From positions 112,696 to 176,695 of the forward strand of contig NCGY01000003.1 in assembly GCA_002281775.1 (NCBI GenBank): a stretch of DNA of 64,000 nucleotides, in the 5' to 3' direction. The position numbers and the translations under genes are program-made. Below, one piece after another: positions 32,587 through 59,960 of the stretch. The notes below the pieces were generated by a model, which was not told where the DNA came from, ran no database searches, and was given only the letters and a program-made list of their open reading frames with translations. Numbering within the stretch: the stretch's first letter is position 1; the number at the start of each line of letters is the position of its first letter. Origin of the DNA: Hydrogenophilales bacterium 16-64-46. GTDB lineage: Bacteria; Pseudomonadota; Gammaproteobacteria; Burkholderiales; Thiobacillaceae.

Positions 32587-32588
32587 TG

Positions 32589-44661: not shown

Positions 44662-44938
44662 TCAGGCCGCAGCCCGTTCCGACCAGGGCATGATCTTGTC
44701 CAGCGCCTTGCTGGTTTCGAGCTGTGCTTTTTCCATGTCGTAATGCGACTGGAGGTTGAGCCAGGACTGCGCATCGGTCCCGAAAAACCGGGCTAGGCGC
44801 AGTGCGGTATCGGCGCTGATGCCGCGCTTGCCGTGAACGATTTCGTTGATGCGGCGGGGTGGCACGCCAATTTCGATGGCTAGCCGGTACTGGCTCAGGC
44901 CCATCGGTTTGAGCCAATCTTCCAGCAGGATTTCGCCT
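44662..44938 (-). pseudogene. higA: HigA antitoxin, 5'-truncated
   Basis: GEILLEDWLKPMGLSQYRLA...GKRGISADTALRLARFFG; native start missing, only an internal Met at 44904. Confidence 0.8.
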
Positions 44939-45175
44939 GTGCCATTCGAAGCACAAGCGCCATTGATCGTTGATGCGTATGCTCCATTGCCCCTTGCGGT
45001 CGCCTTTCAGGGCTTCAAGCTGGTTTTGCGGCGGAATCCTCAGAAACGCGAGATCGGTTGCCGCGTGCAATTGCTTGAGCTTGCGCCGCGCGGCCTGTTC
45101 GAAATTGACAAAGCGTGTCACGTGCCGGTTCTCGAACAAGGCCTGGGTGTCCTTGCACTTGAAGGATTCGATCAT
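44939..45175 (-). pseudogene. higB: HigB toxin, 3'-truncated and reading on through higA out of frame
   Basis: MIESFKCK...LEALKGDRKGQWSIRINDQWRLCFEW, then the usual ...EIVDYH end is absent. Confidence 0.8.
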
Positions 45176-45184
45176 GCCGAATGT

Positions 45185-45199
45185 TAACGCTGTGCGTTA
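45185..45199. promoter_or_regulatory. Candidate HigA operator
   Basis: TAACGC-N3-GCGTTA just upstream of higB. Confidence 0.55.
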
Positions 45200-45280
45200 T
45201 GGGCGGCAACTATGCAAATCACGACGCAAGAACAGGCCGACAGGAGATGGCGCTGAGATGCCCGGCAAGACCGTGTGAGT

Positions 45281-46978
45281 TTACTGGGATGCTTTCACCC
45301 ACGAATCCTTCAATGTCACCGTCCGGTTGAACACCGGCGCACCCGGCTTGGTATCGACGCGATCCGCAACAAAATAGCCATGCCTTTCGAACTGGAACGA
45401 CTGCTCGGGCGCGGCGTCCTTCAGCCCCGGCTCCAACTGCGCGCGGATCACTTTCACCGAATCGGCGTTGAGGTCCAGCAGAAAATCGCTGCTTTCTCCA
45501 CCCGGCTGCGCGGTACTGAACAGGCGGTCGTACAGCCGCACTTCGGCTTCATACGCGTGCGCGGCGCTCACCCAGTGGATGTTGCCCTTGACCTTGACCG
45601 AGTCGGCCCCGGGGGTGCCGGACTTGGTGTCGGGCAGATAGTCGCAGTGCACGGCGGTGAGGGTGCCGTCGGCATCCTTGTCGCAGCCGGTGCACTTCAC
45701 CACATAGCCGTAGCGCAACCGCACCGAGTTGCCGGGGAATAGCCGGAAGTAACCTTTTGAAGGGGTTTCCATGAAGTCTTCGCGCTCGATCCACAGTTCT
45801 TTCGAAAACGGCACGGCGCGCTTGCCGAGGTCGGGCTGCTGCGGGTGGTTGGGGGCGAAGCACTCTTCGCTCTGGCCTTCGGGATAGTTGTCGATGATCA
45901 GTTTCACCGGGTCGAGCACGGCGATGCGGCGCAGGGCGGCGTCGTTCAACACATCGCGCTGGCAGGCTTCGAACACGCTGTAGTCGATCCAGCCATCGGA
46001 TTTCGACACGCCGATCTGGTCGGTGAAACGCTTGAAGCCTTCGGCCGTGTAGCCGCGGCGGCGCGCGCCGACCAGCGTCGGCAGACGCGGGTCATCCCAG
46101 CCGCTGACGTGCTTTTCGTCGACGAGCTGGATCAGCTTGCGCTTGGAGAGCACGACGTAGGTGAGGTTGAGCCGGGCGAACTCGATCTGCTGCGGCACCG
46201 GACGCGGAAAGAAGCCGCCGTCGGCGAGGGTGTCGAGCAGCCAGTCGTAGAACGGGCGCTGGTCTTCGAATTCCAGGGTGCAGATCGAGTGGGTGATGTG
46301 CTCGATCGCGTCTTCGATCGGGTGGGCGTAGGTGTACATCGGGTAGATGCACCATTTGTCGCCGGTGTTGTGGTGGTGCGCTCTTTTAATTCGATAAATC
46401 GCCGGGTCGCGCAGGTTGATGTTGGGCGAGGCCATGTCGATCTTGGCGCGCAGCACGTGCGCGCCGTCGGGGAATTCACCGGCGCGCATCCTGCGGAAGA
46501 GGTCGAGGTTTTCCTCGACGCTGCGGCTGCGGTACGGGCTGTCCTTGCCGGGTTCCGTCAGCGTGCCGCGATACGCGCGCATCTCGTCGGCCGACAGCGA
46601 ATCGACGTAGGCGTTGCCCGAGTTGATCAGGTACTCGGCGCAGGCGTACATGGTGTCGAAATAGTTCGACGCGAAGGAGAGGTGCGGTCCCCAGTCGAAC
46701 CCCAGCCACTTCACCGAATCAGTGATCGAATCGACGTATTCCTGCGATTCCTTTTCGGGGTTGGTGTCGTCAAAGCGCATGTGGCAGACGCCGCCGTAGT
46801 CGCGCGCCAGGCCGAAGTTGAGGAAGATCGACTTGGCGTGGCCCAGATGCAGGTAGCCGTTGGGTTCGGGGGGAAAGCGCGTTTCCACGCGGCCGCCCCA
46901 CTTACCGGCAGCGTTCTGCTCGTCGATGAGGTTGCGGATGAAGTTGGCGGCGGGGACGGGGGCTTCGGAGTGGGACAT
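45281..46978 (-). CDS. glnS: Glutamine--tRNA ligase
   Basis: RFPPEPNGYLHLGHAK, CTLEFED, LSKRKL, FQFERHGYF. Confidence 0.98.
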   Translation of the reverse strand: MSHSEAPVPAANFIRNLIDEQNAAGKWGGRVETRFPPEPNGYLHLGHAKSIFLNFGLARDYGGVCHMRFDDTNPEKESQEYVDSITDSVKWLGFDWGPHLSFASNYFDTMYACAEYLINSGNAYVDSLSADEMRAYRGTLTEPGKDSPYRSRSVEENLDLFRRMRAGEFPDGAHVLRAKIDMASPNINLRDPAIYRIKRAHHHNTGDKWCIYPMYTYAHPIEDAIEHITHSICTLEFEDQRPFYDWLLDTLADGGFFPRPVPQQIEFARLNLTYVVLSKRKLIQLVDEKHVSGWDDPRLPTLVGARRRGYTAEGFKRFTDQIGVSKSDGWIDYSVFEACQRDVLNDAALRRIAVLDPVKLIIDNYPEGQSEECFAPNHPQQPDLGKRAVPFSKELWIEREDFMETPSKGYFRLFPGNSVRLRYGYVVKCTGCDKDADGTLTAVHCDYLPDTKSGTPGADSVKVKGNIHWVSAAHAYEAEVRLYDRLFSTAQPGGESSDFLLDLNADSVKVIRAQLEPGLKDAAPEQSFQFERHGYFVADRVDTKPGAPVFNRTVTLKDSWVKASQ

Positions 46979-47012
46979 GAGGCGATGAAGTCGATGGGGA
47001 ATAAAAACAGGA

Positions 47013-47345
47013 TCAGCGTGGGTCGCCAAGCAGGCGATGCGCCAGCAGGGTCTGCATGTCGCGGCGGCCGTCGGCAATCACGAAAATCACGACGCGCTTG
47101 TCGATTATCCGGTAAATGAGACGGTACGGCTTGAAAAAGACCTGCCGGAACTCCCGGATGCCGAGTGCCAGGAGTTCGCGTGGAGGTGCGCCGCGTTCGG
47201 GAAACGTAGCCAGATCGTCGGCTACCTTGAGTAGCCGTTCCAGTACATGGTCGGCCTGCGCGGGCGAGTCGTGGTTGGCGATGTAGGCGTGCAGGGCTTC
47301 CAGATCGCGCTCGGCACCTGCGGTGAGCAGAACCTTCCAGCGCAT
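47013..47345 (-). CDS. RelE/ParE family toxin
   Basis: AERDLEAL...FPERG...GIREFRQVFFKPYRLIYRI. Confidence 0.88.
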   Translation of the reverse strand: MRWKVLLTAGAERDLEALHAYIANHDSPAQADHVLERLLKVADDLATFPERGAPPRELLALGIREFRQVFFKPYRLIYRIIDKRVVIFVIADGRRDMQTLLAHRLLGDPR

Positions 47346-47349
47346 GGCC

Positions 47350-47613
47350 CTATTTCTTGCGCAGACGTTCGACGACCTCGGAGAGCGGACGGGTTCTGCC
47401 GCCTTCAACGTCCTGATTGCCCAGCGCCAGCAGTTTCAGCAGGGCGAGCGTCTCCTGGGTTTCTTCGTAGCTGGCCACATCCTGGATGACTGCCCTGGCC
47501 TCGCCGTTCTGGGTGATGACCATGGGTTCGCGCAGTTCCGTGAGCTGGCTCAGGACCTCGGCGGCGTTGGCCTTGAGGTAGCTGATGGGTTTGACCTGGG
47601 TCGAGTAGCGCAT
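47350..47613 (-). CDS. Phd/YefM family antitoxin
   Basis: VKPISYLKANAAEVL...PMVITQNGEARAV; AGACT-N6-AGTCT palindrome at 47634-47649. Confidence 0.9.
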   Translation of the reverse strand: MRYSTQVKPISYLKANAAEVLSQLTELREPMVITQNGEARAVIQDVASYEETQETLALLKLLALGNQDVEGGRTRPLSEVVERLRKK

Positions 47614-47674
47614 GCGGGCCTCCTGAACAGATGAGACTGAATATAGTCTTTTATCAGTTATTCGACAACGGCGT

Positions 47675-48760
47675 TCAGGTGATGATGCCGCCGCCCAGGC
47701 ACACCGCGCCGTCGTACAGCACCACGGATTGCCCGGGCGTGACGGCCCACTGCGGGCTGTCGAAGAGGAGTTCCAGCGTGTCGTCGTAGAGCGTGCTGAT
47801 GTGGCAGGCGGCGTCATGCTGGCGGTAGCGCGTCTTGGCGGTGTAGGCGCGCTCGGGATCGGGCGCAACGCCGGCAATCCACGAGAGCTGGGCGGCACCG
47901 AGGCTCGTGCGCTGCAGCAGCGGATGGTCGTGGCCCTGCACGACGACGAGGGTGTTGCTGGCCATGTCTTTCGCCGCAACGAACCAGGGTTCGCCGTCGC
48001 CGTCCTTCTGTCCGCCGATGCCCAGGCCCTGCCGTTGCCCCAGCGTGTAGTACATCAGCCCCTGGTGCTGGCCGACGACGCGGCCTTCGGGGGTGGTCAT
48101 CTCGCCGGGGTCGCGCGGCAGGTAGCGTTCGAGAAATTCGCGGAAGTTGCGCTCGCCGATGAAGCAGATGCCGGTACTGTCCTTTTTCTTCGCGTTGGGC
48201 AGGCCGATTTTTTCCGCCAGCGCGCGCACCTCGGGTTTGGGCAGCGCGGCAAGCGGAAAGAGGGCAGGCGCGAGCTGCTGCTGGCTCAGGCGATAGAGGA
48301 AATAGCTCTGGTCCTTGTTGGCGTCGTCGGCTTTAAGCAGCGTGGCGCGGCCGGCGGCGTCCTGGCCCTTGCCGACGTAGTGGCCGGTGGCGATGAAATC
48401 CGCGCCGCGCGCCACCGCGTCTTCGAGGAAGGCCTTGAACTTGATCTCGCTGTTGCACAGCACGTCCGGATTCGGTGTGCGGCCGGCCTGGTATTCGGCG
48501 AGGAAGTAGCTGAACACGCGTTCCTTGTATTCCTTGGCGAAGTTCACCGCCTCGACTTCGATGCCGAGCACGTCCGCCACCGCGAGCACGTCGAGAAAAT
48601 CCTGGCGTGCGGTGCAGGCGTCGGTGCCGTCGTCGTCGTCCCAGTTCTTCATGAACACGCCGAGCACGTCGTAACCCTGCTGCTTGAGCAAGTAGGCGGC
48701 CACGGCGGAATCGACACCACCCGAGAGGCCGACGACGACTTTGGAGGCAAGGTGGGTCAT
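47675..48760 (-). CDS. mnmA: tRNA 2-thiouridylase MnmA
   Basis: [44 protein letters not shown]. Confidence 0.98.
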
Positions 48761-48819
48761 GCGTGTGGTGGTGTCAGGGGGTGCACTATGCAGGGGGTCT
48801 GGTCAAACGGTGTTGTGTT

Positions 48820-49215
48820 TCACAGCAGCCGGGCAGGCTGGCCCAGCCCATCCAGCAGCGCAACGGCCTTGCGGTCAAAAGACACGAAGGTTTCGCCGCC
48901 CAGCCAGTTGCCCTCGTAGGCAATCACACCGTCGGCGAAATCTCCGCCCGCATCGAGTGTCGCCAATCCGGCTTCCACGGCGGGCCGGTTCATCTCCACG
49001 TTACCCGCCGCCAGCAGCGCGCGGATTGCGCTCGCCGCGTCGCTTGCAGTCAAACCATACACCGAGCGCAGCACCCACACGAATTCGCACAGACAGGGCG
49101 TGGCCACCGCGATCAGTTCGGCTTCGGTCAGCGTATGTGCGGCCTGGGCGCCTTGAGCCGGATCGTCGTTGACCACCGCACGCACCAGCACATTGGTGTC
49201 GACGGTTACCCTCAT
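48820..49215 (-). CDS. PIN/VapC family toxin
   Basis: VDTNVLVR, LCEFVW, DFADGV, SFD. Confidence 0.9.
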   Translation of the reverse strand: MRVTVDTNVLVRAVVNDDPAQGAQAAHTLTEAELIAVATPCLCEFVWVLRSVYGLTASDAASAIRALLAAGNVEMNRPAVEAGLATLDAGGDFADGVIAYEGNWLGGETFVSFDRKAVALLDGLGQPARLL

Positions 49216-49481
49216 TCAGCGCCTTCGTTTTTGTCCAGCCCGGCCCAGCCCCGGGCGGCGGCGGCGTTCAGCTCCTCGATCGTGGCCACTTTATCCGAGC
49301 GGTCTGCCAGCAGGCCGATAAAACTGTTGATTGCGCCAGCAGGCCGCGCTGCCTTGAGTAGCCCCCTGCCATCGGGCAACAAATCCAGTTCGATTTTTTC
49401 GCCCGGCTTGATCCCCAGGTGTTGCAACACTTCTTTTCGAAAGGTCACTTGCCCCCGTGCCGTCACGGTCAATGTCGTCAT
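49212..49481 (-). CDS. AbrB/MazE/SpoVT-type antitoxin
   Basis: LTVTARGQVTFRKEVLQHLGIKPG; upstream TTGAAA-N17-TACATT with GTAAtGC-N6-GCcTTAC operator. Confidence 0.88.
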   Translation of the reverse strand: MTTLTVTARGQVTFRKEVLQHLGIKPGEKIELDLLPDGRGLLKAARPAGAINSFIGLLADRSDKVATIEELNAAAARGWAGLDKNEGAE

Positions 49482-49588
49482 GGTGAAATCCTTTTCTTCG
49501 ACCCGAATGACCCGAATGTAATGCAGATACGCCTTACTTTCAATGCCGGCGGTGATGGGGCGGTGAGGGCGGCGCGGAGGTTGCCGCG

Positions 49589-49927
49589 TCAAACGCCGAG
49601 CACGTGCTTCATCGCCGCGCGCACGGCGCGCGCGTCGGTCGGGGCAAGCTGGCCGAGCGTATTGCGGATGAGGCGGTTGTCGAGCGTGAAGAGCTTGAAG
49701 CGCAGCCGCGAGGGCGCAGGCAACCCGGCGGCGGCAAGATCGGCGAGCAGATGATCGTGCGGCCAGGGGGGATTGTCCGCCGAGGTGATCATCGCCAGCA
49801 CGCTGTGCCCGGCGGGGGTGTTGAACACCGTGGCGTCCGAGAGCACCAGCGCGGGGCGGTTTTTCGTCGCCGCGCGGTCGGTGAACGGAAACGGCACACG
49901 CACCACGGCAAAGCGCTCAAAGCTCAC
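49589..49927 (-). CDS. PemK/MazF family toxin
   Basis: VRVPFPFTDRAATKNRPALVLS, AMITS; GTG start overlaps antitoxin stop. Confidence 0.88.
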   Translation of the reverse strand: MSFERFAVVRVPFPFTDRAATKNRPALVLSDATVFNTPAGHSVLAMITSADNPPWPHDHLLADLAAAGLPAPSRLRFKLFTLDNRLIRNTLGQLAPTDARAVRAAMKHVLGV

Positions 49928-50147
49928 GGTAAGCCGCCTCGTCCGCGTCGCTCGACCATTCGGCCAGCGTGCCTTCCAGCGCGCGCAGGTATTCCAGGTC
50001 GAGCGGCGCGGCACGGCGCACGCGCGCCACGCCGTCATCGCCTACTTCCCACACAATGCTGTCGCCCGGCGACAGCCCGAGTGCTGCGCGCACCGACTGC
50101 GGAATCGTGGTTTGTCCCTTGCTGGTGATTTTGGCGAGCGCGTTCAT
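49917..50147 (-). CDS. AbrB/MazE/PrlF-type antitoxin
   Basis: KITSKGQTTIPQSVRAALGL; CCTTAC-T-GTAAGG palindrome at 50176-50188. Confidence 0.88.
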   Translation of the reverse strand: MNALAKITSKGQTTIPQSVRAALGLSPGDSIVWEVGDDGVARVRRAAPLDLEYLRALEGTLAEWSSDADEAAYREL

Positions 50148-50226
50148 GATGGCGTCCGGTAAGTTGTCATTGCTTCCTTACTGTAAGGCGATCTGGGCGG
50201 ACACGCAAGCCGCGCCCGTGGCTCCA

Positions 50227-53200
50227 TCACCCCGCCCGGTAGCGCCCGTCGGCCAAGCGCTGTGCCCGTCCAAAGTCCACCAGCGCATCGAGCAGCCCGG
50301 GCAGGGCTTTTTGCAGACCACGCGCCTTGTCGAAACCGGCAGCGAGTTCTGCAGGGGTTTGCGGCGCATCGCTGAGCAGGCGGGCGAGCGCGCCGAGCTG
50401 GTCGGGCAGTGCGGCGGGCCAGACAGGTTTGCGCGTGGCAACGGGCGCAATGGCGGGCGCGTCGGTGGCGGGCAGATCGAGTACGACGGTGGTATGAGCG
50501 GGTGCTTGGTACGCTGGGCGCAAAAAACGTACCTGGCCAGCGGCTTCTTCGGTGGCGCGCTCGGCGTTGAGGGCGACAAGACGTTCGAGCAGCGCGCTGT
50601 CGTCGGGCGCGTCGTCCCAGCCGTAGGCGGCCAGCACGGCGGCGTCGAGTTCGTCGTGCAGGGTGTTCAGCACGCCGACCAGGCCCTGCGTGTACACGGT
50701 TTTGTCTTTGGCGGTGAGCGGCTCGCCGGTTCGGAGTTTTTCCCGCACGTTGTACACGCCGGTGAGCGTCAGCTCCGGGTGCATGGCCTGCTGGCGCTTG
50801 CGGTGGGCGTCGAGGCGTTCGGCCAGGTCGCGGATCGTCGCCTGCTGGTCTGGGGTGGCGGCGGGGAAGGGGAATTTTTCGAAACACACGCCCTTGTTGT
50901 AGCGCGGGTCGTTACCAACTCCCAGCCGCCCACCCGCCGCCAGCGCCCAGGCAACATGCACGCGCGAGGACAGCACGCCCAGCATCCAGGCGTCGTCGTG
51001 GGCGATACAGACGAGCATGTTGTCGGGCGCGATGGCGGCGTCGAGAAACTGGAAGACGCGGTGTTTCGCGGTTTCGACGGTGGCGATGTAGCGCGGCAGG
51101 CCGGTGAACATTTTGCGGAGTTCGCGACGCGGCTCGCCAAACAGCCACCAGTTGTCGCGGTAGGTCGCGCGCTGGTTGTGATCGCGTTCGGGTTTCACGC
51201 GGTCTAAAAGCCATTGCCAGACGGTGGGGTACTGCGCGCGCAACGTGGCTTCATCGTAACCCCAGGCGTCGATGACGAGCACGCCGCGCGGTTTGTCGGT
51301 GATGTCGCGGCCGTTGCGGTAGGGGCGGATGAGTGCGGGCGCGGCCAGTTCAGCAGCCTCGTCGGGGGTGACGATGAAGCCCGCGCCGTGGAGTTTAAAA
51401 CCGGGCGAGCTGATGTTCCCGTTCGCCCGCAACGCCACCGCTGCCGCGACGTTGGCACCGACGCGCAAGTTCGCATGGATCGCGCCGCTGCGTTCGGCGA
51501 GTTCGACATCGATCTCGCCGTCCGTCCCCGGGGTTTCGCGGCTGACGGCGAGGAGCCGCCCGTCGCCCGCGCCGGGCGCGGCGACGGTCATCGCCACGCG
51601 CACGGCCGCGCCGTTGGCTTCGTCCACCCAGGGGTGGTCGGCAATGGCCCAGGCCAGGTGCAGCGCATCCAGATGCTGTTCCAGCACCCGTCGGTTGAAG
51701 GTTTGCGTGAGGCTGTTGGTGGTGATGAAGCCGAAGCGGCGAATTTTGTTTTCGCGCAGCAACCGCGCGGCGTGATCCCACCAGAACATGACGAGGTCGG
51801 CGGACTCGGGCACGCCCGGGTGCGTCTGCCGCAGGGCATCGACGTAACCGTCGCCGAGCGCCTGCCGCAGGGTGGACGCGCCGATGAAGGGCGGGTTGCC
51901 GACGACGAAGTCGGCAGCCGGCCAGACGGCGGCGTGCGGGTCGAGATAGCGCACGACGGCGGCGCGGGCGGATTCGTCGGGCACGGGCTTGCCGGTGACG
52001 GGGTGCGGTTTGAAGCTGACGCCGTCCCAGCGGGTGAGCGGCTGGCCGGCTTCATCCTGCACGGCTTCGATGCGGCGCCAGTCGAGCACGGCGTCGCGGC
52101 ATTCGATGTTTTTGAAATCGCGCAGCACCGGCGTGGGCGGCAGGGCGTGGCCACGGTTTCTGAAGTGCCATTGCAGATGGCCGATCCATAACACCAGCTC
52201 GGCCACCGCTGCGGCGCGCGGGTTGCGTTCCAGCCCCAGGAATTGATGCGGATCGACGGTGAGGCCTTCGGTGTCGAGTTCCTGTTGTTGCATGGTGCCG
52301 TCTTTGCTGGCCGCGCTTTGCAGCGCACCCAGCAGTTCGAGCACTTCGGCTTCGAGCCGTTTCAGGTGTTCCAGCGCCACGTAGAGAAAGTTGCCGGAAC
52401 CGCAGGCGGGGTCGAGCACGCGGGTGGCGCACAGGGTCTGGTGAAAGCCGCGCGCGAGTTTGAGCGCAGCGGCGGCGTCGCCCCGATCCATGAGCGCGAG
52501 CGCGGCGGTCTGCACGTTGAGCCAGTCGGCGCGCAGCGGTTCGACCAGCGTGGGCAGCACCAGGCGTTCGACATAGGCGCGCGGGGTGAAGTGCGCGCCC
52601 AGCGCGTGGCGCTCGGCGGGGTCGAGTGCGCGCTCGATGAGCGTGCCGAAAATGGCGGGTTCGACGTGCTTCCAGTCGGCGCGGGCGGCGGCGAGCAGGG
52701 TTTCGAGCTGGGGGCGGGTAAGTTCCAGCGCGACGGGAATCTTGAACAGCTTGCCGTTGAAGTGGGGAATGGTTTTGCGCAGCGCGACGGAATAGCCGCC
52801 GCTGTCCATTTTTTGCCAGAGTTCTTCGATGCTGGGCTTGAACGAGGCGGGCTCGACACAGGCGGCGACGACGATGTCGGTGAAGCCGCCGGCGGGCAAG
52901 AGGCCGACGTCTTCGGCAAACATGGTGAAGAGGCAGCGGGTGAGGAAACCGGCGACGGCGTGCGGTTCGTGATCGGCTTCGAGGCCGCGCGCGAGCTGGC
53001 CGAGATGCGCGGCGACTTCGCGGGTGACGCGGGCGGCGATGCGCGCGGGGTCGAGCGCGGCAGGCTCGGTGAAAACCCGTTTGAGTCGGTCGCGCACGGC
53101 GTCGTGCGCGAGGTCGGTGATGGCGATGCGATAGCTCGCCCGATCCGGAAAATATTCGTAGCTGCGGTCGTTGTCGCGGAATTGGGCGTAGAGCGCAATG

Positions 53201-53586
53201 AAGCGCCCGACGTTGGCGACCATGAGAAATACCGGACGCGGCTCGGACGCGGGAAGGTTGCGCGCGTAGCTTTCGGCCTGCGCCTTGGCCTTGATGAGCT
53301 TGTTGGCGGCGGCGTCCAGATCGCGACCGAGGTGAAAGCTCTTGGATTCGCAGATGAAATGGCCGCGCTTGTAGGTGTCGATGAAGCGCGCCGCGCCCGC
53401 GCCGGATTCGTCGAGCGCGTCGATGTGGCGCTCAAAGACGTAGGCGTTGTCTGCGTCGTTCGCCTGCGCGGGCAGGGGTTTGTCCACCCCGAGCAGTTCG
53501 CACAGGTCGTTGAAAAAAAGCTGGTAGTTGGCGCGCTCGCTGCCGGATGCGCCGTTCCATTTGGCGATGAAGGACTGCGGGGTCAT
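50227..53586 (-). CDS. Single-chain restriction-methylase, MmeI / Type IIL-IIG like
   Basis: N-terminal D...ExK (FIDTYKRGHFICESK), HFTPRAYV, VLDPACGSGNFL, GNPPFIG, TRD-like C-terminal half; start at MTPQSF. Confidence 0.88.
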   Translation of the reverse strand: MTPQSFIAKWNGASGSERANYQLFFNDLCELLGVDKPLPAQANDADNAYVFERHIDALDESGAGAARFIDTYKRGHFICESKSFHLGRDLDAAANKLIKAKAQAESYARNLPASEPRPVFLMVANVGRFIALYAQFRDNDRSYEYFPDRASYRIAITDLAHDAVRDRLKRVFTEPAALDPARIAARVTREVAAHLGQLARGLEADHEPHAVAGFLTRCLFTMFAEDVGLLPAGGFTDIVVAACVEPASFKPSIEELWQKMDSGGYSVALRKTIPHFNGKLFKIPVALELTRPQLETLLAAARADWKHVEPAIFGTLIERALDPAERHALGAHFTPRAYVERLVLPTLVEPLRADWLNVQTAALALMDRGDAAAALKLARGFHQTLCATRVLDPACGSGNFLYVALEHLKRLEAEVLELLGALQSAASKDGTMQQQELDTEGLTVDPHQFLGLERNPRAAAVAELVLWIGHLQWHFRNRGHALPPTPVLRDFKNIECRDAVLDWRRIEAVQDEAGQPLTRWDGVSFKPHPVTGKPVPDESARAAVVRYLDPHAAVWPAADFVVGNPPFIGASTLRQALGDGYVDALRQTHPGVPESADLVMFWWDHAARLLRENKIRRFGFITTNSLTQTFNRRVLEQHLDALHLAWAIADHPWVDEANGAAVRVAMTVAAPGAGDGRLLAVSRETPGTDGEIDVELAERSGAIHANLRVGANVAAAVALRANGNISSPGFKLHGAGFIVTPDEAAELAAPALIRPYRNGRDITDKPRGVLVIDAWGYDEATLRAQYPTVWQWLLDRVKPERDHNQRATYRDNWWLFGEPRRELRKMFTGLPRYIATVETAKHRVFQFLDAAIAPDNMLVCIAHDDAWMLGVLSSRVHVAWALAAGGRLGVGNDPRYNKGVCFEKFPFPAATPDQQATIRDLAERLDAHRKRQQAMHPELTLTGVYNVREKLRTGEPLTAKDKTVYTQGLVGVLNTLHDELDAAVLAAYGWDDAPDDSALLERLVALNAERATEEAAGQVRFLRPAYQAPAHTTVVLDLPATDAPAIAPVATRKPVWPAALPDQLGALARLLSDAPQTPAELAAGFDKARGLQKALPGLLDALVDFGRAQRLADGRYRAG

Positions 53587-53915
53587 GGGGCGGGAGGGTC
53601 TTCGCACAGCCAGGCTGGCAGATCGCGCTGCGCGTGAAGAATGCGCCAGACGTCGATGTGGTCTGGCCGCTCGACATAAAAAACCATGTAGGGGAAGCGT
53701 TTGAGCGGCCATACACGCAAGCCCGGCAAACCCAATTCGTGGTCGAAGCGCGACGATCCTGCCGCGGGGTGGCGGGCAAGCTGAGCGATGGCGCGTTCGA
53801 GCGCGTCGAGAAAAAGCCGGGCAGCATCGGGCGCATTCTGCGACCGATACCAGTCGATCACGGTTTCGGTATCGCGTGTGGCGATCCGTCGCGGTACGAC
53901 GGGTTTGACGCTCAC
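53583..53915 (-). CDS. ParE/RelE family toxin
   Basis: ATRDTET..DWY...HPAAGS...RVWPLKRFPYMVFY...RILHAQRD. Confidence 0.9.
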   Translation of the reverse strand: MSVKPVVPRRIATRDTETVIDWYRSQNAPDAARLFLDALERAIAQLARHPAAGSSRFDHELGLPGLRVWPLKRFPYMVFYVERPDHIDVWRILHAQRDLPAWLCEDPPAP

Positions 53916-54148
53916 CCGCGCGGCGCGTCAATGCGCTGGCGCAAGACTTCGAAATAGGCCGCGTCGGCGGGGCGATCCGGCGCGGAAGCCGCACCTTCGA
54001 GCAGCAAGGCCCGCAGGTTCTGGCGCTCCTGATCTTTGCGGATCAGCTCGCGCATGTATTCGCTGCTGGTGCCGTAGCCGCGTTCAGTGACCTGATTATC
54101 GACAAAAGCCTTGAGTGAATCCGGCAGGGAAATATTCATTGTGCTCAT
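53912..54148 (-). CDS. ParD/CopG RHH antitoxin
   Basis: MSTMNISLPDSLKAFVD...YGTSSEYMRELIR. Confidence 0.9.
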   Translation of the reverse strand: MSTMNISLPDSLKAFVDNQVTERGYGTSSEYMRELIRKDQERQNLRALLLEGAASAPDRPADAAYFEVLRQRIDAPRG

Positions 54149-54155
54149 GGGCGGG

Positions 54156-54184
54156 ATACTAGGCATGTTGGCAAAATTTGGCAA
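54156..54184 (-). promoter_or_regulatory. Sigma70 promoter of parDE-RM operon, probably leaderless
   Basis: TTGCCA-N17-TAGTAT, 7 nt before the ATG; TTGCCAA occurs twice (possible RHH operator). Confidence 0.6.
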
Positions 54185-54202
54185 TAGCAGGTCAGAGGCA
54201 GG

Positions 54203-54325
54203 TCAGGTAAATAGCGCGGTGATCAGCCAGAGCACGCCGAATCCGATCAGCAGGATTGCGATTCCCAGCGCGAGACCTTCAAACGCGCCTTTGGCGATTG
54301 CTACATAAAAATTGTCTTTATCCAC
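54203..54325 (-). CDS. 40-aa single-pass membrane protein, not in ORF track
   Basis: GTG start with AAGGA upstream; MDKDNFYVAIAKGAFEGLALGIAILLIGFGVLWLITALFT. Confidence 0.55.
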   Translation of the reverse strand: MDKDNFYVAIAKGAFEGLALGIAILLIGFGVLWLITALFT

Positions 54326-54393
54326 AGAAAATCCTTGATTGCGGGTTATGGGGGAGTTACCTCAGGCTACAAGGGCGCGTTCGCGCTGCGGTG

Positions 54394-56268
54394 TCAAACC
54401 GCCTCCCCGCTGACCACGCATTCCAGCCGATCCCACGGCAGTCGCTCGGGCTGGGCGCGGGCGAAGCGGCAGACCAGCGCCTCGCCCGCATCCAGCCGCC
54501 GCGCGATATTGATGTTGAACGGACGCGGCAGGTAGCCGAGTTTGCGGCCTTGCCAGGCGACGAGCACGGCAAGCGGGTCGTGGGGGTTGTCGGGCTCGCG
54601 CACGAGTTCGAGCAGCTGGCCGGGCGTGAGGCGGGTTTCCAGCGCTGGATCACGGTTGTAGGCATAACCGGTGATGTGGGAGAACAGCAGCGCGCCCGCA
54701 GGCAGAGGCGGGTTGCGCCGCGCGGCGATCCAGGCCAGCGCGCGGCTTAGGCGGCGCTCGCTTTCGGCGTCGAGGCGCAGGGCGGGCGGACGACAAGGGG
54801 TGTCGCTGACGGTGTCCCGCCAGTGCCCGAGACGCACGCGCTGCGGGCGCAGCTCGGGGGCGTTGAGATGGATTTCCACTTGCTGCGCGAACAGCTCCAT
54901 GAGATAGCCCGCGTCGGCATTGCACGGGCCGCGCAGTTGCACGAGTTTGAAATGCAGGTCGTCGCCCCGCTGCTGGATGTCGTACTGCGCGGTGGCGCGC
55001 CCGCCTTTGGGCAGGGTGAGCGAGACGATGCGCGTGTCACCTTCGGCGATGTCGTCCCAGTAACTGGCGACGCAGTGGTGCAGGGCATCGCCTTCGTCGG
55101 CGAGTGTGTCGTAGTCGAGTAGCTCGCGCGCGATGCTCAGATTGCGGTCGAGCACGCCGAAAAGTGCGGGGACGGGGATATCCCGCGTCGGCACGATAGC
55201 AGTCTGGCGCGGGTGTCGGTGCCAGCGCACCGAGGCGTCGAGCAGTGACGTCAGGCCGTGACGCGCGAGCCAGGCGTGGCCGAGCGTTGCGTCGTCGCCG
55301 TCCAGGTTGGCGTCGAGTTCGAGCGCACGGGCCATGGCGACGCGCAGAAAATCGCGGCAGTCGTCGATGGCATTGCCGAGGGGATTGAAGCGCGCTTCGA
55401 GCGCGGTCCACAGCGCAGCCCAACCTGGCTTGAACAACGTGGCGGCCAGTTCGAGCAGGGCGGGTTCGCCGACCAGGCGTTCGAGCGCGGCGACATAGGG
55501 CGCGCCACGTTCGAGTTCGGCCCGGCTCGCCGGGCGCGCGTGGGCGGGAATGCGGTCGAGCAGCTGCACCATGCGCGTGTGCGCGATGCCGAGATCGCCC
55601 CACATTTCGCTGCACACCGGCGCGCGCACCAGGCTGCGCGAAACACCGTAATGCGCGGCGAGCACGCCGGCGAGATCGCGCCCCTGCAACGCGGCATCGA
55701 CCACCTCGTCGTCGTGATCGCGCCAGGCGAAACGCTTGCCGCCGCAGGTGTCGGTCGCGTGGTGCGCGGTGAGCAGGATCGGTGCGGCGAGCACGGGAAA
55801 CCGCTCGACCGCCTGTTGCCGCCGGCGGCCTTCTTCGCCTGATACGAGCCGGTTGTAATTGCGGCACGAACTCCAGAAGCGGTGCGCGTCGAGCCGGGCA
55901 AGGCATTCGAGTATGCCCTGGTCGAGCCCGGCGGCGAAACGCCGTGCCTCGGCGTGTCTGGCATGGCCCCAGGCGAGCGCGGGCATCGGCGCGGCAGGCG
56001 CGGCGTAGAGCACGATGGGGAGGAGGAGAGCGCGAGGCACGTCCACTTCGAGCACCTCGCCGCGCGCATCATCGGCAATGCCTTCGACGATGGCGGGGAT
56101 CAGCGCGTCGTCGCCGAGCAAATGCGCTGCGAGACGAAAGGCAAGCACCCGCCCGTCGGCCAGATGCAGCCACAGCAGCGCCGCTTCGGTGGCTTCGCCG
56201 TATTCGCGCGTGGTGAGCCACAGGCGTGCGCGGACGGCGTTACAGGTCGCAGTCATCGTCGCCGCCAA
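54394..56268 (-). CDS. PcfJ-like domain protein with C-terminal HIRAN domain
   Basis: LADEGDALHHCVASY...VQLRGPCN (PcfJ-like); LVREPDNPHDPLAV...KLGYLPR (HIRAN); start may be 56256. Confidence 0.78.
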   Translation of the reverse strand: MAATMTATCNAVRARLWLTTREYGEATEAALLWLHLADGRVLAFRLAAHLLGDDALIPAIVEGIADDARGEVLEVDVPRALLLPIVLYAAPAAPMPALAWGHARHAEARRFAAGLDQGILECLARLDAHRFWSSCRNYNRLVSGEEGRRRQQAVERFPVLAAPILLTAHHATDTCGGKRFAWRDHDDEVVDAALQGRDLAGVLAAHYGVSRSLVRAPVCSEMWGDLGIAHTRMVQLLDRIPAHARPASRAELERGAPYVAALERLVGEPALLELAATLFKPGWAALWTALEARFNPLGNAIDDCRDFLRVAMARALELDANLDGDDATLGHAWLARHGLTSLLDASVRWHRHPRQTAIVPTRDIPVPALFGVLDRNLSIARELLDYDTLADEGDALHHCVASYWDDIAEGDTRIVSLTLPKGGRATAQYDIQQRGDDLHFKLVQLRGPCNADAGYLMELFAQQVEIHLNAPELRPQRVRLGHWRDTVSDTPCRPPALRLDAESERRLSRALAWIAARRNPPLPAGALLFSHITGYAYNRDPALETRLTPGQLLELVREPDNPHDPLAVLVAWQGRKLGYLPRPFNINIARRLDAGEALVCRFARAQPERLPWDRLECVVSGEAV

Positions 56269-56476
56269 ACAGGCTGAACAGTCCGCCGATACCCAGAAGC
56301 AGCAGGGGGAAAGCCAGGATCAGCCAGAGCGCCGCGAGAAGAAAAATGATGAAGATCCCCCAGAACACCAACTTGGCAGTGAACAGGGGGGCGACCTGAA
56401 ACATGCTGAAGCCGATAACGCCGATGATGGCCGCCCAAAGCCACTCGGCGTCCGAATATTGTCTGGGTGTTTTAAT
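56240..56476 (-). CDS. ~78-aa hydrophobic membrane protein without canonical start, not in ORF track
   Basis: KTPRQYSDAEWLWAAIIGVIGFSMFQVAPLFTAKLVFWGIFIIFLLAALWLILAFPLLLLGIGGLFSLFGGDDDCDL*; ATT 7 nt after AGGAG, or ATG shifted by one extra A. Confidence 0.5.
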   Translation of the reverse strand: MKTPRQYSDAEWLWAAIIGVIGFSMFQVAPLFTAKLVFWGIFIIFLLAALWLILAFPLLLLGIGGLFSLFGGDDDCDL

Positions 56477-56519
56477 TTTTCATCTCCTGATGCAAGAGGT
56501 TTGATCATCGTGCGGCAGG

Positions 56520-56538
56520 CGATCAAAAACTGATCGGG
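56520..56538. promoter_or_regulatory. Palindromic site copy 1, candidate WYL-regulator site
   Basis: CGATCA-AAAAC-TGATCG-GG; 18/19 identical to 58964-58982. Confidence 0.65.
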
Positions 56539-56591: not shown

Positions 56592-57665
56592 TTGAGCGGC
56601 GAATCCACCCTGGCCGACTTCCGCCGCGACTTTCTCGCCACGGTGGAAAAACAGGGCTGGAAGGACTTCACCGGCGACGACCGTGCCACGCAGGGCCGCA
56701 CCGGCGGGCGCGGGCTGGCTTGGCGCACCCGCACCATCTACCAGACCAACATCGCCGCCAGCTACGCCGCCGGGCGCTGGCAGCAACTCAACGCCCCCGA
56801 CCTGTTGGCCGCCCGCCCCTACTGGCGCTACGTGCATTCGGATTTTGTCGGCAACCCGCGCCCGCGCCACAAGGCATGGGGCGACAGCGGGCTGACCCTG
56901 CGCCACGACCATCCCTTCTGGAAAACCCATTTTCCGCCCAACGGATGGGGTTGCCGGTGCAGCGTCAAGGCCGTGCCCGCGCCGAAGGACGGCGACGCCA
57001 CCGCGCCGCCGGTCGGCTGGGATGCGCGAGACGGCAAGGGGCGTCTGCCGGGGATCGACAGGGGTTGGGATTACGCGCCGGGAGCGACATGGAACCCTTG
57101 GGACAGGCTGGCAGGGCTGCCCGATTGCGATGGACTGGCAGCGTTGGCGGCGGGCGGGCCGTGTATCCCTAAGGCAGGCAGGCAGCCTGCTGACTGGCGT
57201 TCGGAGCAGCGTCCCGATCTGCGCGATGTTCCGCCAGTATTGCGCTTGCCGTCGCCGCCCTTGTTACCGAAGGCAAAAGACCGCAGCGAGGCGGTCGAGA
57301 TGCTGGCGCAGGCGTTGGGGATTTCCTCCGCCAACCCCTACCGGGTGGTCGATACTCCATGGTATGGCATGGTTCCGCTCGCCTACGAGAGGCTGCCGCA
57401 TATGGTGGGCAAGGAAAGGGATGCGCGGGAGCGTTACGCGAATTTCATTTTGCCGACGCTGATGCAGCCGTATGAAATATGGGAAACCGCCTACGCGGAC
57501 GGGACAACGCGACCGCGCTTCATTGGTCTATTTGACGGCCCCGCGCAAGTGATGGTGGTCGTTAGAATCGACCGTGACGGCCGGGTATTCTGGAATTACA
57601 TGCAGGCGAAAAACAAGGACATGAATGCCCACCGCGAGGGGGTCAGCCTGGTCTATCGTAAATGA
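56592..57665 (+). CDS. Phage Mu gpF-like (MuF) protein, N-truncated, with C-terminal BECR/PBECR2-like nuclease domain
   Basis: IYQTNIAASYAAGRW, RPYWRY, HPFWKTHFPPNGWGCRC (MuF); HMVGKERDARERYANFILPTLMQPYEIW...FIGLF...FWNY C-terminal domain. Confidence 0.75.
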   Translation: MSGESTLADFRRDFLATVEKQGWKDFTGDDRATQGRTGGRGLAWRTRTIYQTNIAASYAAGRWQQLNAPDLLAARPYWRYVHSDFVGNPRPRHKAWGDSGLTLRHDHPFWKTHFPPNGWGCRCSVKAVPAPKDGDATAPPVGWDARDGKGRLPGIDRGWDYAPGATWNPWDRLAGLPDCDGLAALAAGGPCIPKAGRQPADWRSEQRPDLRDVPPVLRLPSPPLLPKAKDRSEAVEMLAQALGISSANPYRVVDTPWYGMVPLAYERLPHMVGKERDARERYANFILPTLMQPYEIWETAYADGTTRPRFIGLFDGPAQVMVVVRIDRDGRVFWNYMQAKNKDMNAHREGVSLVYRK

Positions 57666-57668
57666 TGG

Positions 57669-57767
57669 AAACGCTCCGGGGTCCCGTTCCGCGCGCCTGT
57701 CGGTGCGCCGGAGCCCTTCCGCCGGGTATTGAGCCGACACTCACCCGGGTTCGCGCCCGGAGCGTTT
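57669..57767 (+). ncRNA. Candidate structured RNA directly after the MuF-nuclease gene
   Basis: Perfect 12-bp closing stem AAACGCTCCGGG/CCCGGAGCGTTT, two internal hairpins, TGTCGG/CCGACA complementarity between them. Confidence 0.55.
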
Positions 57768-57786
57768 GAGCAAAGGATAGCAAACA

Positions 57787-58272
57787 ATGGCACTGCTGCA
57801 AATTGACATAGACGACCGAGCCGTGCTCGACGTGCTGGCCAAACTGGCGAAGCGCGCGGGCAACCTCGCACCGGCGCTGACCCAGATCGGCGAAGAATTG
57901 CGCGATTCGACCCAGCGCCGCTTCGCCACCGGCACCGGCCCGGACGGCCAGCGCTGGGCACCCAACAGCCAGACCACGCTGCTGCGTTACCTGGGCAGCA
58001 AGGATCGCCCCGGCGGGCTGTTCGGCAAGCGCGACGGCAAATTGACGAAAAAAGGCGTGGGCGCGGCGCTGGGCAAAAAGCCGCTGGTGGACAGCGGCAC
58101 GCTGGCGAGCACGATCAATTACCAGTTGGCCGATGGTGGGCGCACGCTGCTGGTGGGTAGCAAGGCTCAGGAAAAGCTGATAACGATGCCAAGCAGAACA
58201 AGTACCACAAAAGCCAGCAATCCAAGCTGGACGACAAACCATAGGGTATTGAAGACGGCGTCCAAGAGCTGA
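57787..58272 (+). pseudogene. Phage virion morphogenesis protein (Mu gpG-like), 3'-truncated near 58161
   Basis: IGEELRDSTQRRF...PDGQRW...PLVDSGTLASTI...LLVGS, after which similarity stops where the convergent gene ends. Confidence 0.75.
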
Positions 58273-58940
58273 GCGGCTGGCGTAGGTGAATTGCAGAAGC
58301 GGGGTACGCCGTCGAAAACTGGGCGGTGCCGGGTGTGCACACTGTCCAGTTTGTCGAGTGCCTCCAGCATGTCGTCTTGGCTGAGCGTTTTGATCCGTGC
58401 AAGGAATAGGTGTAGCTCGGGCGATGCCGTCAGGGTAAGGCAAGTTTCAATTTCCAATACGGGATGCCTATCGTTCCACAGCCCGCGCGCTTCGAGCACA
58501 GCGCGTGGCGCAGCAAGAACGGCAAGGAGTTCGTCGAGCCAGGTGAGGATTTCGCGCAGGGTGTGGGTATAGGCGGCGGGCAGCAGGTGACGGGCGTCGT
58601 GCGTGAGCGGGGGTGAGACGATGTGCGCTGCGGCGGCACGGCCTTCGATCAGGCGGTCGATTTCAGCTTCGAGGAGGGCGACGGCACGATGGGCGTCGGC
58701 CTCGCTGGCGTTCGGGTTGGCCAGCACGTCGCCATTCGTGTCGTTCAGCCGCTGTGTGATGCGGGCGGCAATGTTTTCGAACGTATCAAGGTGTTGTTGC
58801 AGCGTGACGGAGGCATCCACTGGATTCGTGCGCTTAGTCCGAGCGGAAGAGCTAGTGAGTTCGGCCCGCAGCCGTTCGGCAAGGCGGGTGAGCGCGTTGC
58901 CGAAGGCGATGAGTCGAGGCGGCAGGGTGAAGTCGGTCAT
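58167..58940 (-). CDS. Hypothetical helical protein with C-terminal TM anchor
   Basis: 257-aa ORF ending LWFVVQLGLLAFVVLVLLGIVISFS. Confidence 0.7.
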   Translation of the reverse strand: MTDFTLPPRLIAFGNALTRLAERLRAELTSSSARTKRTNPVDASVTLQQHLDTFENIAARITQRLNDTNGDVLANPNASEADAHRAVALLEAEIDRLIEGRAAAAHIVSPPLTHDARHLLPAAYTHTLREILTWLDELLAVLAAPRAVLEARGLWNDRHPVLEIETCLTLTASPELHLFLARIKTLSQDDMLEALDKLDSVHTRHRPVFDGVPRFCNSPTPAAQLLDAVFNTLWFVVQLGLLAFVVLVLLGIVISFS

Positions 58941-58960: not shown

Positions 58961-58983
58961 ACCCGATCAAAACCTGATCGGGT
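58961..58983. promoter_or_regulatory. Palindromic site copy 2, candidate WYL-regulator site
   Basis: Perfect ACCCGATCA-AAACC-TGATCGGGT between the WYL stop and the next ATG. Confidence 0.7.
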
Positions 58984-58991: not shown

Positions 58992-59960
58992 TCAGTTGTA
59001 GCGCGCGAGGCTTTCCGACAAACGGCGTTTGACCCATTCGCGCAGGTCGGCGGGCGCGACGACTTCGACTTCCGGCCCGTATTTGAGGATGTCCATGACG
59101 AGTTCGGTGGGGTTGCCGTAGGGCACGGCCAGCTCGTAGCTGCCGTCGATGAGGAAGTGGCCGCTTTGTTCGCGGTGCCAGCGTTCATCGGCGACCCAGC
59201 GCGCGGCATTGGCAGAAAACCGCAGCACAGCGGTGTGGCGGGCGCTACCCGAGAAGATGCCGTAGGCGCTGGCGTAATGCGCATTTTGAGTGGCTTCGTC
59301 TACTGCAATGGCGGCCTCGGGGCGGCGCTCGGGGGCTTCGATGCGGTCGAGCGAAAAGCTGCGCAGACCGTTGCGCAAATGACACCAGGCGTCGAGATAC
59401 CAGTTGCTCTTGTACCAGGCCAGCCGCAGAGGCGAAACGGTACGGCGTGCGTGGTCGTTGCGGATGCGACCGCGATAGGTGAAGGCCAGTTGTTGACCGT
59501 CGGCGAGCGCGCCTGCGACGGCGCGGAATACGCTGTCATCGACTTTGCGCGCGGCGAGTGCGATGAGTTTGACGCGCTGGCGAAGCTGGCCACCGCCGGG
59601 CTGGCGCTGTTCGAGCAGGGCTTCGAGGCGTTTGACCAGCGGTGCGATTTCCTCGCCGAGCAGGCCGGGCTCGACTTCGGATAACCATTGGTGCGCCGCC
59701 AGCAGGGCGTGGAGTTCGGACGCGGAAAACCACAGGCCGGGGAGTTCGTAAGTTGTTTCTTCGTTCTGTTCGTAGACCCAGCCGCCGCGCGCGCGATCAA
59801 AACGCACCGGCGCGCCGAGCTCGTCGCGCAGTTTGGCGATGAGACGCCGGACGGTGGGTTCGGAACATTCGAGCTTCTGTATCAGTTCGTGGGTGGTGAC
59901 GGGCGTGCGCCGCCCGGCGAGGAAACCATGCAGATCGTAGAGGCGGTCGAATTTGTTCAT
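58992..59960 (-). CDS. HTH-WYL regulator, YafY/DriD/PafBC type
   Basis: ELIQKLECSEPTVRRLIAKLRDELGAP; VSPLRLAWYKSNWYLDAWCHLRNGLRSFSLDRI; start at MNKFDR. Confidence 0.92.
   Translation of the reverse strand: MNKFDRLYDLHGFLAGRRTPVTTHELIQKLECSEPTVRRLIAKLRDELGAPVRFDRARGGWVYEQNEETTYELPGLWFSASELHALLAAHQWLSEVEPGLLGEEIAPLVKRLEALLEQRQPGGGQLRQRVKLIALAARKVDDSVFRAVAGALADGQQLAFTYRGRIRNDHARRTVSPLRLAWYKSNWYLDAWCHLRNGLRSFSLDRIEAPERRPEAAIAVDEATQNAHYASAYGIFSGSARHTAVLRFSANAARWVADERWHREQSGHFLIDGSYELAVPYGNPTELVMDILKYGPEVEVVAPADLREWVKRRLSESLARYN

Follow-up and report, generated by a model that had tools for sequence, protein, structure and literature searches.

A 64 kb window of the genome of Hydrogenophilales bacterium 16-64-46 (contig NCGY01000003.1, nt 112,696–176,695) carries a gene for a protein in which a PcfJ domain is followed by a C-terminal HIRAN domain (PcfJ-HIRAN). 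Immediately upstream of it are an open reading frame (ORF) for a membrane microprotein and a 17 bp palindrome, here called operator 1. A second copy of the palindrome (operator 2) lies between the gene of a WYL-domain regulator (WYL1) and that of a helical, tail-anchored protein of 257 aa, and the microprotein, PcfJ-HIRAN, 257-aa and WYL1 genes are all read from the same strand (Table 1). Related loci are designated L001, L002 and so on, and counts of associated genes were taken over the 41 loci that carry a full-length PcfJ-HIRAN gene. The only data sets found to contain the locus are DNA metagenomes of mine drainage and sediment.

Table 1. Features of the PcfJ-HIRAN locus; positions are nucleotides of the 64 kb window.
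Feature	Position	Strand	Remarks
WYL1 regulator gene	58992..59960	-	322 aa; HTH_11-WYL-WCX (Pfam); PafBC/DriD type
Operator 2	58964..58980		CGATCAGGTTTTGATCG; second exact copy of CGATCA-N5-TGATCG; arms extend to CCCGATCA/TGATCGGG
Putative -10-like hexamer TACAAA	58949..58954	-	Between operator 2 (9 nt away) and the ATG of the 257-aa gene (8 nt away)
Gene of the 257-aa family	58167..58940	-	Helical protein with C-terminal transmembrane anchor
Inverted cassette	56592..58272	+	MuF+PBECR2 (56592-57665) and Phage_tail_S (57787-58272); Pfam, PHROG; outside the conserved core
Operator 1	56520..56536	read on -	CGATCAGTTTTTGATCG; CGATCA-N5-TGATCG; upstream of the microprotein/PcfJ-HIRAN operon
Putative -10-like hexamer GATGAT	56504..56509	-	10 nt after operator 1
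Membrane microprotein gene	56240..56476	-	78 aa from ATT; 2-3 hydrophobic segments; C-terminal tail LFSLFGGDDDCDL
PcfJ-HIRAN gene	54394..56256	-	620 aa from the ATG at 56256
PcfJ-HIRAN, N-terminal region	55162-56256	-	aa 1-365
PcfJ-HIRAN, PcfJ core	54859-55161	-	aa 366-466; followed by a helical linker, then HIRAN
PcfJ-HIRAN, HIRAN domain	54397-54675	-	aa 528-620 (Pfam)
40-aa hydrophobic ORF	54203..54325	-	GTG start; lineage-specific; link to the module doubtful
Context genes	50227..54148	-	ParD 53912-54148; ParE 53583-53915; MmeI-type type IIG 50227-53586 (Pfam, PADLOC)

A first-pass annotation, made from the sequence alone, had described the 620 aa product as a fusion of an unannotated N-terminal region, a PcfJ domain and a C-terminal HIRAN domain, and this was borne out by Pfam and by the homologues. 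PF14284 (PcfJ) matches aa 385–452 with 36.8 bits (cut-off applied, 25 bits) and PF08797 (HIRAN) matches aa 528–620 with 44.5 bits (cut-off, 24.7 bits), and the first ~380 residues (aa 1–380) have no Pfam match. The frame extends to 54394–56268 on the minus strand, which would give 624 aa from a TTG codon. Homologues form 63 clusters, mostly of 600–720 aa and with the same architecture, and are encoded in metagenomes and in genomes of Rhodocyclaceae, Thiobacillaceae, Chromatiaceae, Burkholderiales and Xanthomonadales; isolates that have the family include Tepidimonas aquatica, Thermomonas flagellata and Fontimonas. In variants of the scaffold, HIRAN is either missing or replaced by a Cys_rich_CPCC domain (P0009, residues 569–621). 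No NCBIfam model matches PcfJ-HIRAN, and in PHROGs the PcfJ and HIRAN parts match unnamed phage families. The PADLOC candidate family PDC-M03B aligns to the HIRAN part alone (aa 531–622, 14–35 bits); there is no full-length match to PDC-M03, and none of its other components was found among the neighbours tested.

An AlphaFold2 model of the whole protein, built with 62 sequences, has a predicted local distance difference test score (pLDDT) of 91.6 and a predicted template modelling score of 0.80, with a pLDDT of ~90 in the HIRAN region. When the whole model was compared with the PDB by Foldseek, only the HIRAN part was matched, by lp_0118 (target template modelling (TM) score 0.75–0.78) and by HIRAN-DNA complexes of HLTF (probability 1.0, E 3e-4 to 2e-3), and HIRAN was again the sole match in a profile search of PDB sequences. 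Both the model and the Foldseek matches point to the HIRAN beta-barrel fold. The motif E-P-x-N-P-x-D (REPxNPxD) is kept, with E554, N557, P558 and D560 invariant or nearly so in comparisons of 23 and of 62 members; we take these residues to be the 3′-OH binding pocket seen in HLTF structures. The C-terminal 93 residues resemble HLTF, lp_0118 and PDC-M03B in being a bona fide HIRAN domain with the NPxD motif of the 3′-end pocket, but PcfJ-HIRAN differs from these proteins in having no SNF2, RING or nuclease partner domain, and we know of no described HIRAN architecture that includes a PcfJ fusion.

The PcfJ part contains the motif LHHCVASYW. Its score and its conserved E...HC...Y / T / Q..G..N core place it in PF14284, a family for which we know of no activity. 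Residues E388, G389, H394, C395, Y399, T422, Q440, G443 and N446 are each kept in at least 91% of 80 distant members. An exhaustive profile search using the core gave a family of 5700 representative clusters, spread over phages, conjugative elements and chromosomes and including giant multi-domain proteins; seven of the giants were compared with Pfam, which added a single domain (InPase, in one of the seven). The core modelled alone has a pLDDT of 92.8, and its top PDB matches are mostly GNAT-type acyltransferases at sub-threshold values (E 0.04–1, probability at most 0.90, TM 0.38–0.44). Its topology, beta-alpha-alpha-beta-beta-beta-alpha plus the QxxGxxN loop, resembles only the first two thirds of the GNAT fold. 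A GNAT-like core is thus a lead only, and we do not file the domain as a GNAT member. Structure prediction with Foldseek, which had been proposed for each domain at the first pass, confirmed HIRAN and left the PcfJ core with sub-threshold GNAT folds alone; the 'enzymatic domain' of the first-pass annotation is unproven.

The 5′ neighbour of PcfJ-HIRAN is the membrane microprotein, whose frame is open over 56240–56479 on the minus strand. The ORF listing gives only 54 aa, from an internal ATG. The longer form of ~78 aa claimed earlier is upheld, because the ATT at 56476 aligns with the ATG of relatives (82–84 aa), is kept in the sister strain L169, and is followed by a stretch with a synonymous bias: over the 25 codons that precede the internal ATG, the window and L169 differ by three synonymous changes versus one non-synonymous change. 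The ATT sits 6 nt after the Shine-Dalgarno sequence AGGAGA, and the ATG of the homologues is at the identical spacing. The GC content of third minus second codon positions (GC3-GC2) is 0.46. Comparison of the homologous sequences indicates that the microprotein is under purifying selection.

The microprotein ORF overlaps the ATG of PcfJ-HIRAN by 17 nt; an overlap between the stop of the microprotein gene and the start of PcfJ-HIRAN is common to the window, L085, L086 and L169. L085 and L086, whose PcfJ-HIRAN proteins are 84% and 72% identical to that of the window, encode a protein of 82–84 aa in the same overlapping position. The family as a whole comprises 19 proteins of 54–85 aa with a near-invariant C-terminal tail, SLFGGDDCDCDL. 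By its arrangement and conservation, the microprotein is predicted to be a real, conserved and translationally coupled partner of PcfJ-HIRAN. The further proposal that the small membrane proteins flanking PcfJ-HIRAN are 'membrane effectors' was not supported.

A three-codon mini-ORF, ATG AAA AAT TAA (nt 56472–56483), lies right after the Shine-Dalgarno sequence, overlaps the ATT start and might influence how often translation begins there; L169 has the identical mini-ORF. A programmed +1 frameshift from this mini-ORF into the microprotein frame was considered and was rejected in favour of the ATT start, because the ATT aligns exactly with the ATG of the homologues at the same Shine-Dalgarno spacing. 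In L085 (nt 3127–3709), a tandem duplication consisting of an operator, a 78 aa microprotein copy (tail LFGGDDDCEL) and a 99 aa N-terminal fragment of PcfJ-HIRAN is found upstream of the intact operon.

The 40-aa hydrophobic ORF on the other side of PcfJ-HIRAN was initially judged spurious, a view overturned by L169, the only other locus where it is intact (with an ATG start). Since this sister strain keeps the ORF with a ratio of non-synonymous to synonymous changes (pN/pS) of 0.34, it is probably a real gene, although lineage-specific: L085 and L086 are homologous to the window only as far as 54409/54413, short of the ORF.

The palindrome CGATCA-N5-TGATCG, the upstream site reported in the first-pass annotation, was confirmed at 56520–56536, and its recurrence, promoter geometry and co-variation with the WYL regulator all suggest that it is a regulatory site. 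Two exact copies were found in the 64 kb window, versus about 0.004 expected. Operator 1 is conserved in L085, L086 and L169, and operator 2 is identical at the same position in L086, L088, L085 and L169; across this clade (window, L169, L085, L086 and L088) the sequence occurs 2–4 times per locus. Other loci carry a second flavour, GGCTCA-N5-TGAGCC, upstream of several gene types, namely PcfJ-HIRAN (L001, L002, L005, L008, L009, L010, L012 and L025), membrane-protein genes (L004, L008 and L009) and stand-alone HIRAN genes (L048, L055 and L070). In L167, three units lie behind exact sites and a fourth, the HIRAN-235-aa unit, behind a site with one mismatch. For both flavours together, 33 exact sites were found in 644 kb (the loci counted and the whole window), versus about 0.08 expected. 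A scan of metagenome contigs with CCGATCAGGTTTTGATCG returned 75 single matches, which varied in GC content and had no related genes around them; they were set aside as chance or coding matches and are uninformative on the regulon.

The operator-bearing promoters share one design, in which the 17 bp palindrome is followed, after 9–11 nt, by a putative -10-like hexamer (CATCAT, GACAAT, GATAAT or TACAAA). Visual inspection gave this spacing for most of 29 printed sites and recognised no -35 at the operator-bearing promoters. Distances from the operator edge to the ATG, listed for all 33 exact sites, are either 21–24 nt (leaderless class) or 41–48 nt (Shine-Dalgarno class). The presence of an ATG-initiated ORF near an operator does not itself discriminate operators from random positions in GC-rich DNA (63% in the control), so that only the tight clustering of distances is informative. 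Operator 2 lies 11 nt past the WYL1 stop codon and 23 nt ahead of the ATG of the 257-aa gene, and the proximity of the putative -10 to this ATG implies a leaderless mRNA; about a dozen sites elsewhere among the loci show the same spacing of operator, -10 and ATG. Downstream of operator 1, the leader of about 25 nt that follows GATGAT carries the Shine-Dalgarno sequence AGGAGA (nt 56483–56488), and a CGATGAT(C/G)AAAC block is kept in the window, L085, L086 and L169. From this geometry, the palindrome appears to be a regulatory site that occupies the -35 position of -10-only promoters. A site over an absent -35, at a fixed distance from the -10, is the arrangement of DriD/PafBC-type promoters, and is what is seen here with the putative -10 assignments.

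The candidate for the protein acting at these sites is WYL1. Its closest solved relatives are PafBC (6sj9, 1e-19), then PafC and DriD (about 1e-7), and it has their winged helix-turn-helix (wHTH)-WYL-WCX architecture. No close relationship to BrxR or CapW was found, both of which match it weakly (about 5e-3; range E 5e-3 to 0.3). WYL orthologues 76–83% identical to WYL1 go with the CGATCA operator, and those 43–48% identical go with GGCTCA or close variants; the recognition helix reads SEPTVRRL in CGATCA loci versus SRATFKRD in GGCTCA loci. On sequence comparison, the operator flavour and the recognition helix of the WYL regulator next to it therefore appear to vary together.

Cryo-electron microscopy has shown that promoters under DriD control have no -35 and that the site of DriD overlaps this position at a set distance from the -10; DriD bound to single-stranded DNA (ssDNA) activates didA, for a small membrane division inhibitor, and bapE, for an endonuclease (PMC13004042; PMC9186387). 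DdaA, a related WYL activator, controls a division inhibitor in Acinetobacter (PMC13010146). The promoter design described here matches the DriD logic, from which we infer activation and an ssDNA signal. The resemblance to the SOS-independent damage regulons of DriD (Caulobacter crescentus) and PafBC (mycobacteria) includes the regulator architecture and best sequence matches, the palindrome overlapping the place of the absent -35, with a constant spacing to the -10 (PMC13004042) and, for DriD, a regulon combining a small membrane protein with a DNA-directed protein, as do didA and bapE. There are also differences. The operator is 6-5-6 (CGATCA/TGATCG), in contrast to CGAC-N7-GTCG (PMC13010146); the genes behind the present operators all belong to a variable island, the recA gene of the window having no operator; and the targets (PcfJ-HIRAN, the DCDCDL microprotein, the 257-aa family and a CPCC protein) are unrelated to theirs. 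Likewise, the microprotein is comparable with the damage-induced small membrane division inhibitors DidA, SidA and AciT in being a small membrane protein behind a promoter that, for the microprotein, is predicted to be WYL-dependent and of the damage type (PMC9186387, PMC13010146), but has no sequence similarity to them, its tail SLFGGDDCDCDL is without counterpart there, and a role in division would be pure analogy. The damage- or phage-induced operon envisaged in the first-pass annotation is plausible in view of the co-variation with a PafBC/DriD-like WYL regulator and the position of the site (PMC13004042), but the unit is larger than was thought, and modular.

A second WYL regulator is encoded in the window (31687–32586, plus strand), divergent from recA (30487–31602, minus strand) and recX (30048–30509, minus strand), with cinA adjoining (the group spanning 30048–33130). 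It is BrxR/CapW-like (1e-36 to 1e-30).

The conserved unit, as far as gene neighbourhoods indicate, is a modular set consisting of a WYL regulator, operators, the 257-aa family, a CPCC family of ~510 aa, the microprotein, and PcfJ-HIRAN or a stand-alone HIRAN protein. Over the 41 loci, a WYL1-type regulator is present in about 14, an exact or near-exact operator in 14–18, the 257-aa tail-anchored family in 11, the microprotein in about seven and the ~510-aa CPCC protein in three (and also in L167). Examination of neighbourhood conservation thus showed a recurring gene set with its operators, but not the three-gene unit first proposed: the microprotein stands as a conserved partner, although it accompanies PcfJ-HIRAN in only about 7/41 loci, and the 40-aa ORF is found only in the window and L169. 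The 257-aa protein has no match in Pfam, NCBIfam, PADLOC or PHROG; its gene has a pN/pS of 0.39 against L169, and its homologues lie beside PcfJ-HIRAN or HIRAN genes in L004, L008, L017, L022, L033, L034, L085, L088, L090, L167 and L169.

The two operators of the window precede two units, the 257-aa gene with its apparently leaderless mRNA, and the translationally coupled microprotein and PcfJ-HIRAN genes. The operator units of L167 include a stand-alone HIRAN gene with a 257-family gene, a microprotein gene with one for an Ank-cpYpsA (SLOG) protein, and a gene for a 254 aa protein. Homology blocks among the window, L085, L086, L088 and L169 break exactly at operators, and operator-bearing genes appear from these alignments to recur as shuffled cassettes. 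The inverted MuF+PBECR2/Phage_tail_S cassette fills the exact slot of a 512-aa Cys_rich_CPCC gene in L169 (L169 nt 3174–4730). The tail_S ORF and the 257-aa gene overlap at their 3′ ends by about 105 nt. L085 too has a PBECR2/tail_S pair beside an operator, and a weak MuF-like protein is encoded downstream in L088. The 512-aa CPCC protein was considered as a relative of PcfJ-HIRAN, and hhalign against the PcfJ-HIRAN profile gave no relationship.

Several co-regulated proteins end in similar tails (GDDDCGCDGDV, GDDCDVDCGD and DIFDDD). More broadly, acidic and often Cys-rich C-terminal tails occur on membrane or tail-anchored proteins of different families, as GGDDCDCDL, GDDDCGCDGDV, GDDCDVDCGD, DIFDDD and AWGDDQ; the tail-bearing proteins come from L167 (nt 439–7593), L034, L004, L008 and L009. 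No known motif or function could be assigned to the shared tails, which may mark a new mechanism of partner recognition or anchoring.

These shared features bear on whether PcfJ-HIRAN might simply be a stand-alone DNA repair or replication-fork factor, with the small and membrane ORFs being unrelated or non-functional island clutter. HIRAN is classically a fork-remodelling module, about 27/41 loci have neither a WYL gene nor a microprotein near PcfJ-HIRAN, and the gene is often located between housekeeping genes (mutY/yggX in L089, valS in L090). We nevertheless think such an explanation very improbable. In many genomes, genes for PcfJ-HIRAN, the microprotein, the 257-aa family and stand-alone HIRAN proteins lie behind one and the same operator, the microprotein shows translational coupling and appears to be under purifying selection, and a tail motif common to co-regulated proteins is hard to explain by chance; the shared operator, coupling and tail motif together make a purely incidental neighbourhood unlikely. 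Among the 44 loci with stand-alone HIRAN genes of Thiobacillus/Burkholderiales (L037–L080), only L048, L055 and L070 have an operator or WYL gene close by and the other 41 have none, and WYL-box regulation is therefore limited to a subset of HIRAN genes.

Two other explanations were considered. PcfJ-like proteins are typical of phages and conjugative elements, and the best matches of PcfJ-HIRAN among viral predicted structures (BFVD) are uncharacterised phage 'PcfJ-like' proteins (E 1e-6 to 1e-3). Given also the large size of the PcfJ core family, its giant multi-domain members, and the MuF+PBECR2 and Phage_tail_S genes inside the module in the window and L085, PcfJ-HIRAN might be a relic or cargo of a mobile element, having served a now decayed prophage or integrative and conjugative element in anti-defence or DNA entry. 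The PcfJ-like proteins of phages, conjugative plasmids and polyvalent proteins share its core motif and fold, but they are encoded on mobile elements and lack HIRAN, whereas PcfJ-HIRAN is chromosomal (beta- and gammaproteobacteria) and has an N-terminal region of its own. No integrase, capsid or transfer genes are present, and a tblastn search of 72,556 plasmids and 50,697 phages with PcfJ-HIRAN gave no match. In L086, which lacks the restriction and ParDE genes there, and in L169, the module is in the same chromosomal slot (NUDIX ... mnmA) as in the window, and the MuF/tail_S cassette took the place of the CPCC gene late. The stable slot and the absence from plasmid and phage collections make an origin as a mobile-element relic the most remote of the explanations considered.

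The PcfJ-HIRAN family appears from its neighbourhoods to sit in chromosomal islands, often beside type IIG restriction genes. A gene for an MmeI-type type IIG restriction enzyme is beside PcfJ-HIRAN in about 12/41 loci, the two genes of L033 being adjacent or overlapping. Also nearby are type III-like methylases, a DUF499/DUF1156/SLFN cluster, AbiE and many toxin-antitoxin pairs. This setting, the patchy distribution, the cassette swaps at operators and the match of the HIRAN part to PDC-M03B would all suit an anti-phage defence of the abortive-infection type, in which WYL1 would be a BrxR/CapW-like repressor of a toxic module that is derepressed on infection; PcfJ-HIRAN would then attack or cap phage replication ends, and the microprotein and tail-anchored proteins would damage the membrane. 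A palindrome over the -35 is equally a classic repressor position, and CapW-type repressors likewise sense ssDNA (PMC11662680). With the BrxR/CapW repressors of BREX and CBASS, WYL1 shares a location beside island-borne, variable and possibly toxic genes, and the palindrome binding and response to ssDNA or damage known for them (PMC11662680; PMC9186387) are predicted for WYL1. However, WYL1 is far closer to PafBC/DriD than to its weak matches BrxR and CapW, and there are no BREX or CBASS genes; the lack of a recognisable -35 fits dependence on an activator, and no partner protein matches any PADLOC model. Defence of this kind is a serious alternative, although less likely than the interpretation favoured below.

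We favour, at a probability of about 45%, the interpretation that these genes belong to an ssDNA-responsive island regulon under WYL1, the main cytosolic product of which would be targeted by HIRAN to DNA 3′ ends. ssDNA arising from damage, stalled replication, DNA uptake or phage replication would bind the WYL domain of WYL1, as in DriD/PafBC, and the WYL1 dimer would then recruit RNA polymerase to the -35-less promoters. PcfJ-HIRAN would be made and its HIRAN domain would dock on free 3′-OH DNA ends, bringing the PcfJ core (E-x5-HC-x3-Y, RxT, QxxGxxN; possibly GNAT-like) to the end, or to an end-bound protein, which would then be modified or blocked. Membrane proteins induced alongside it, with their acidic Cys-rich tails, might tether the complex, or might arrest division and act on the envelope, compare DidA in the DriD regulon. 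The location in variable islands with restriction and toxin-antitoxin genes suggests that the response is directed at least partly against foreign DNA.

Several observations weigh against this interpretation. BrxR and CapW, relatives that sense ssDNA, are repressors, and the sequence does not settle whether WYL1 is an activator or a repressor. A regulator is nearby in only about 14/41 loci and an operator in 14–18/41, many Xanthomonadales members having neither. The PcfJ core has no significant match in the PDB, and the second half of the GNAT fold is missing from it. The ATT start may mean that the microprotein is synthesised at a low level in this strain. Finally, the intergenic region between recA (the only recA in the window) and the second WYL gene has no copy of the island operator; as recA is without the operator and is paired with a BrxR/CapW-like WYL regulator, WYL1 is not the general damage regulator here.

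A more detailed version would be an ssDNA-triggered conflict or damage system in which a HIRAN-guided PcfJ enzyme with a GNAT-like transferase core modifies or caps free 3′-OH ends or a bound protein, the SLFGGDDCDCDL-tagged membrane proteins act as co-effectors or anchors, and the WYL-dependent, -35-less and often leaderless promoters double as recombination points for cassettes. In this full form the proposal is speculative, and improbable as a whole.

The domains and the class of regulator are already known. In the literature searched, control of the PcfJ-HIRAN family by a regulator of this class, the flavours of the operator, the arrangement in cassettes and the DCDCDL-tail proteins appear to be undescribed. 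Here PcfJ is joined to a domain whose ligand, the 3′ DNA end, is defined, and is linked to a DriD/PafBC-type regulatory input, and its biochemistry is therefore directly testable. The promoter design would extend the DriD/PafBC activation logic to island genes of beta- and gammaproteobacteria, and the operator/promoter signature can be used for finding further members of the regulon.

The wider surroundings of the module (nt 44000–54200 and 18300–19650 of the window) are rich in toxin-antitoxin genes. In addition to ParDE, they include MazE/PemK at about 49589–50147, Phd/ParE near 47000, a DUF4160/DUF2442 pair at 18312–18847 and a Polbeta nucleotidyltransferase at 19310–19642.

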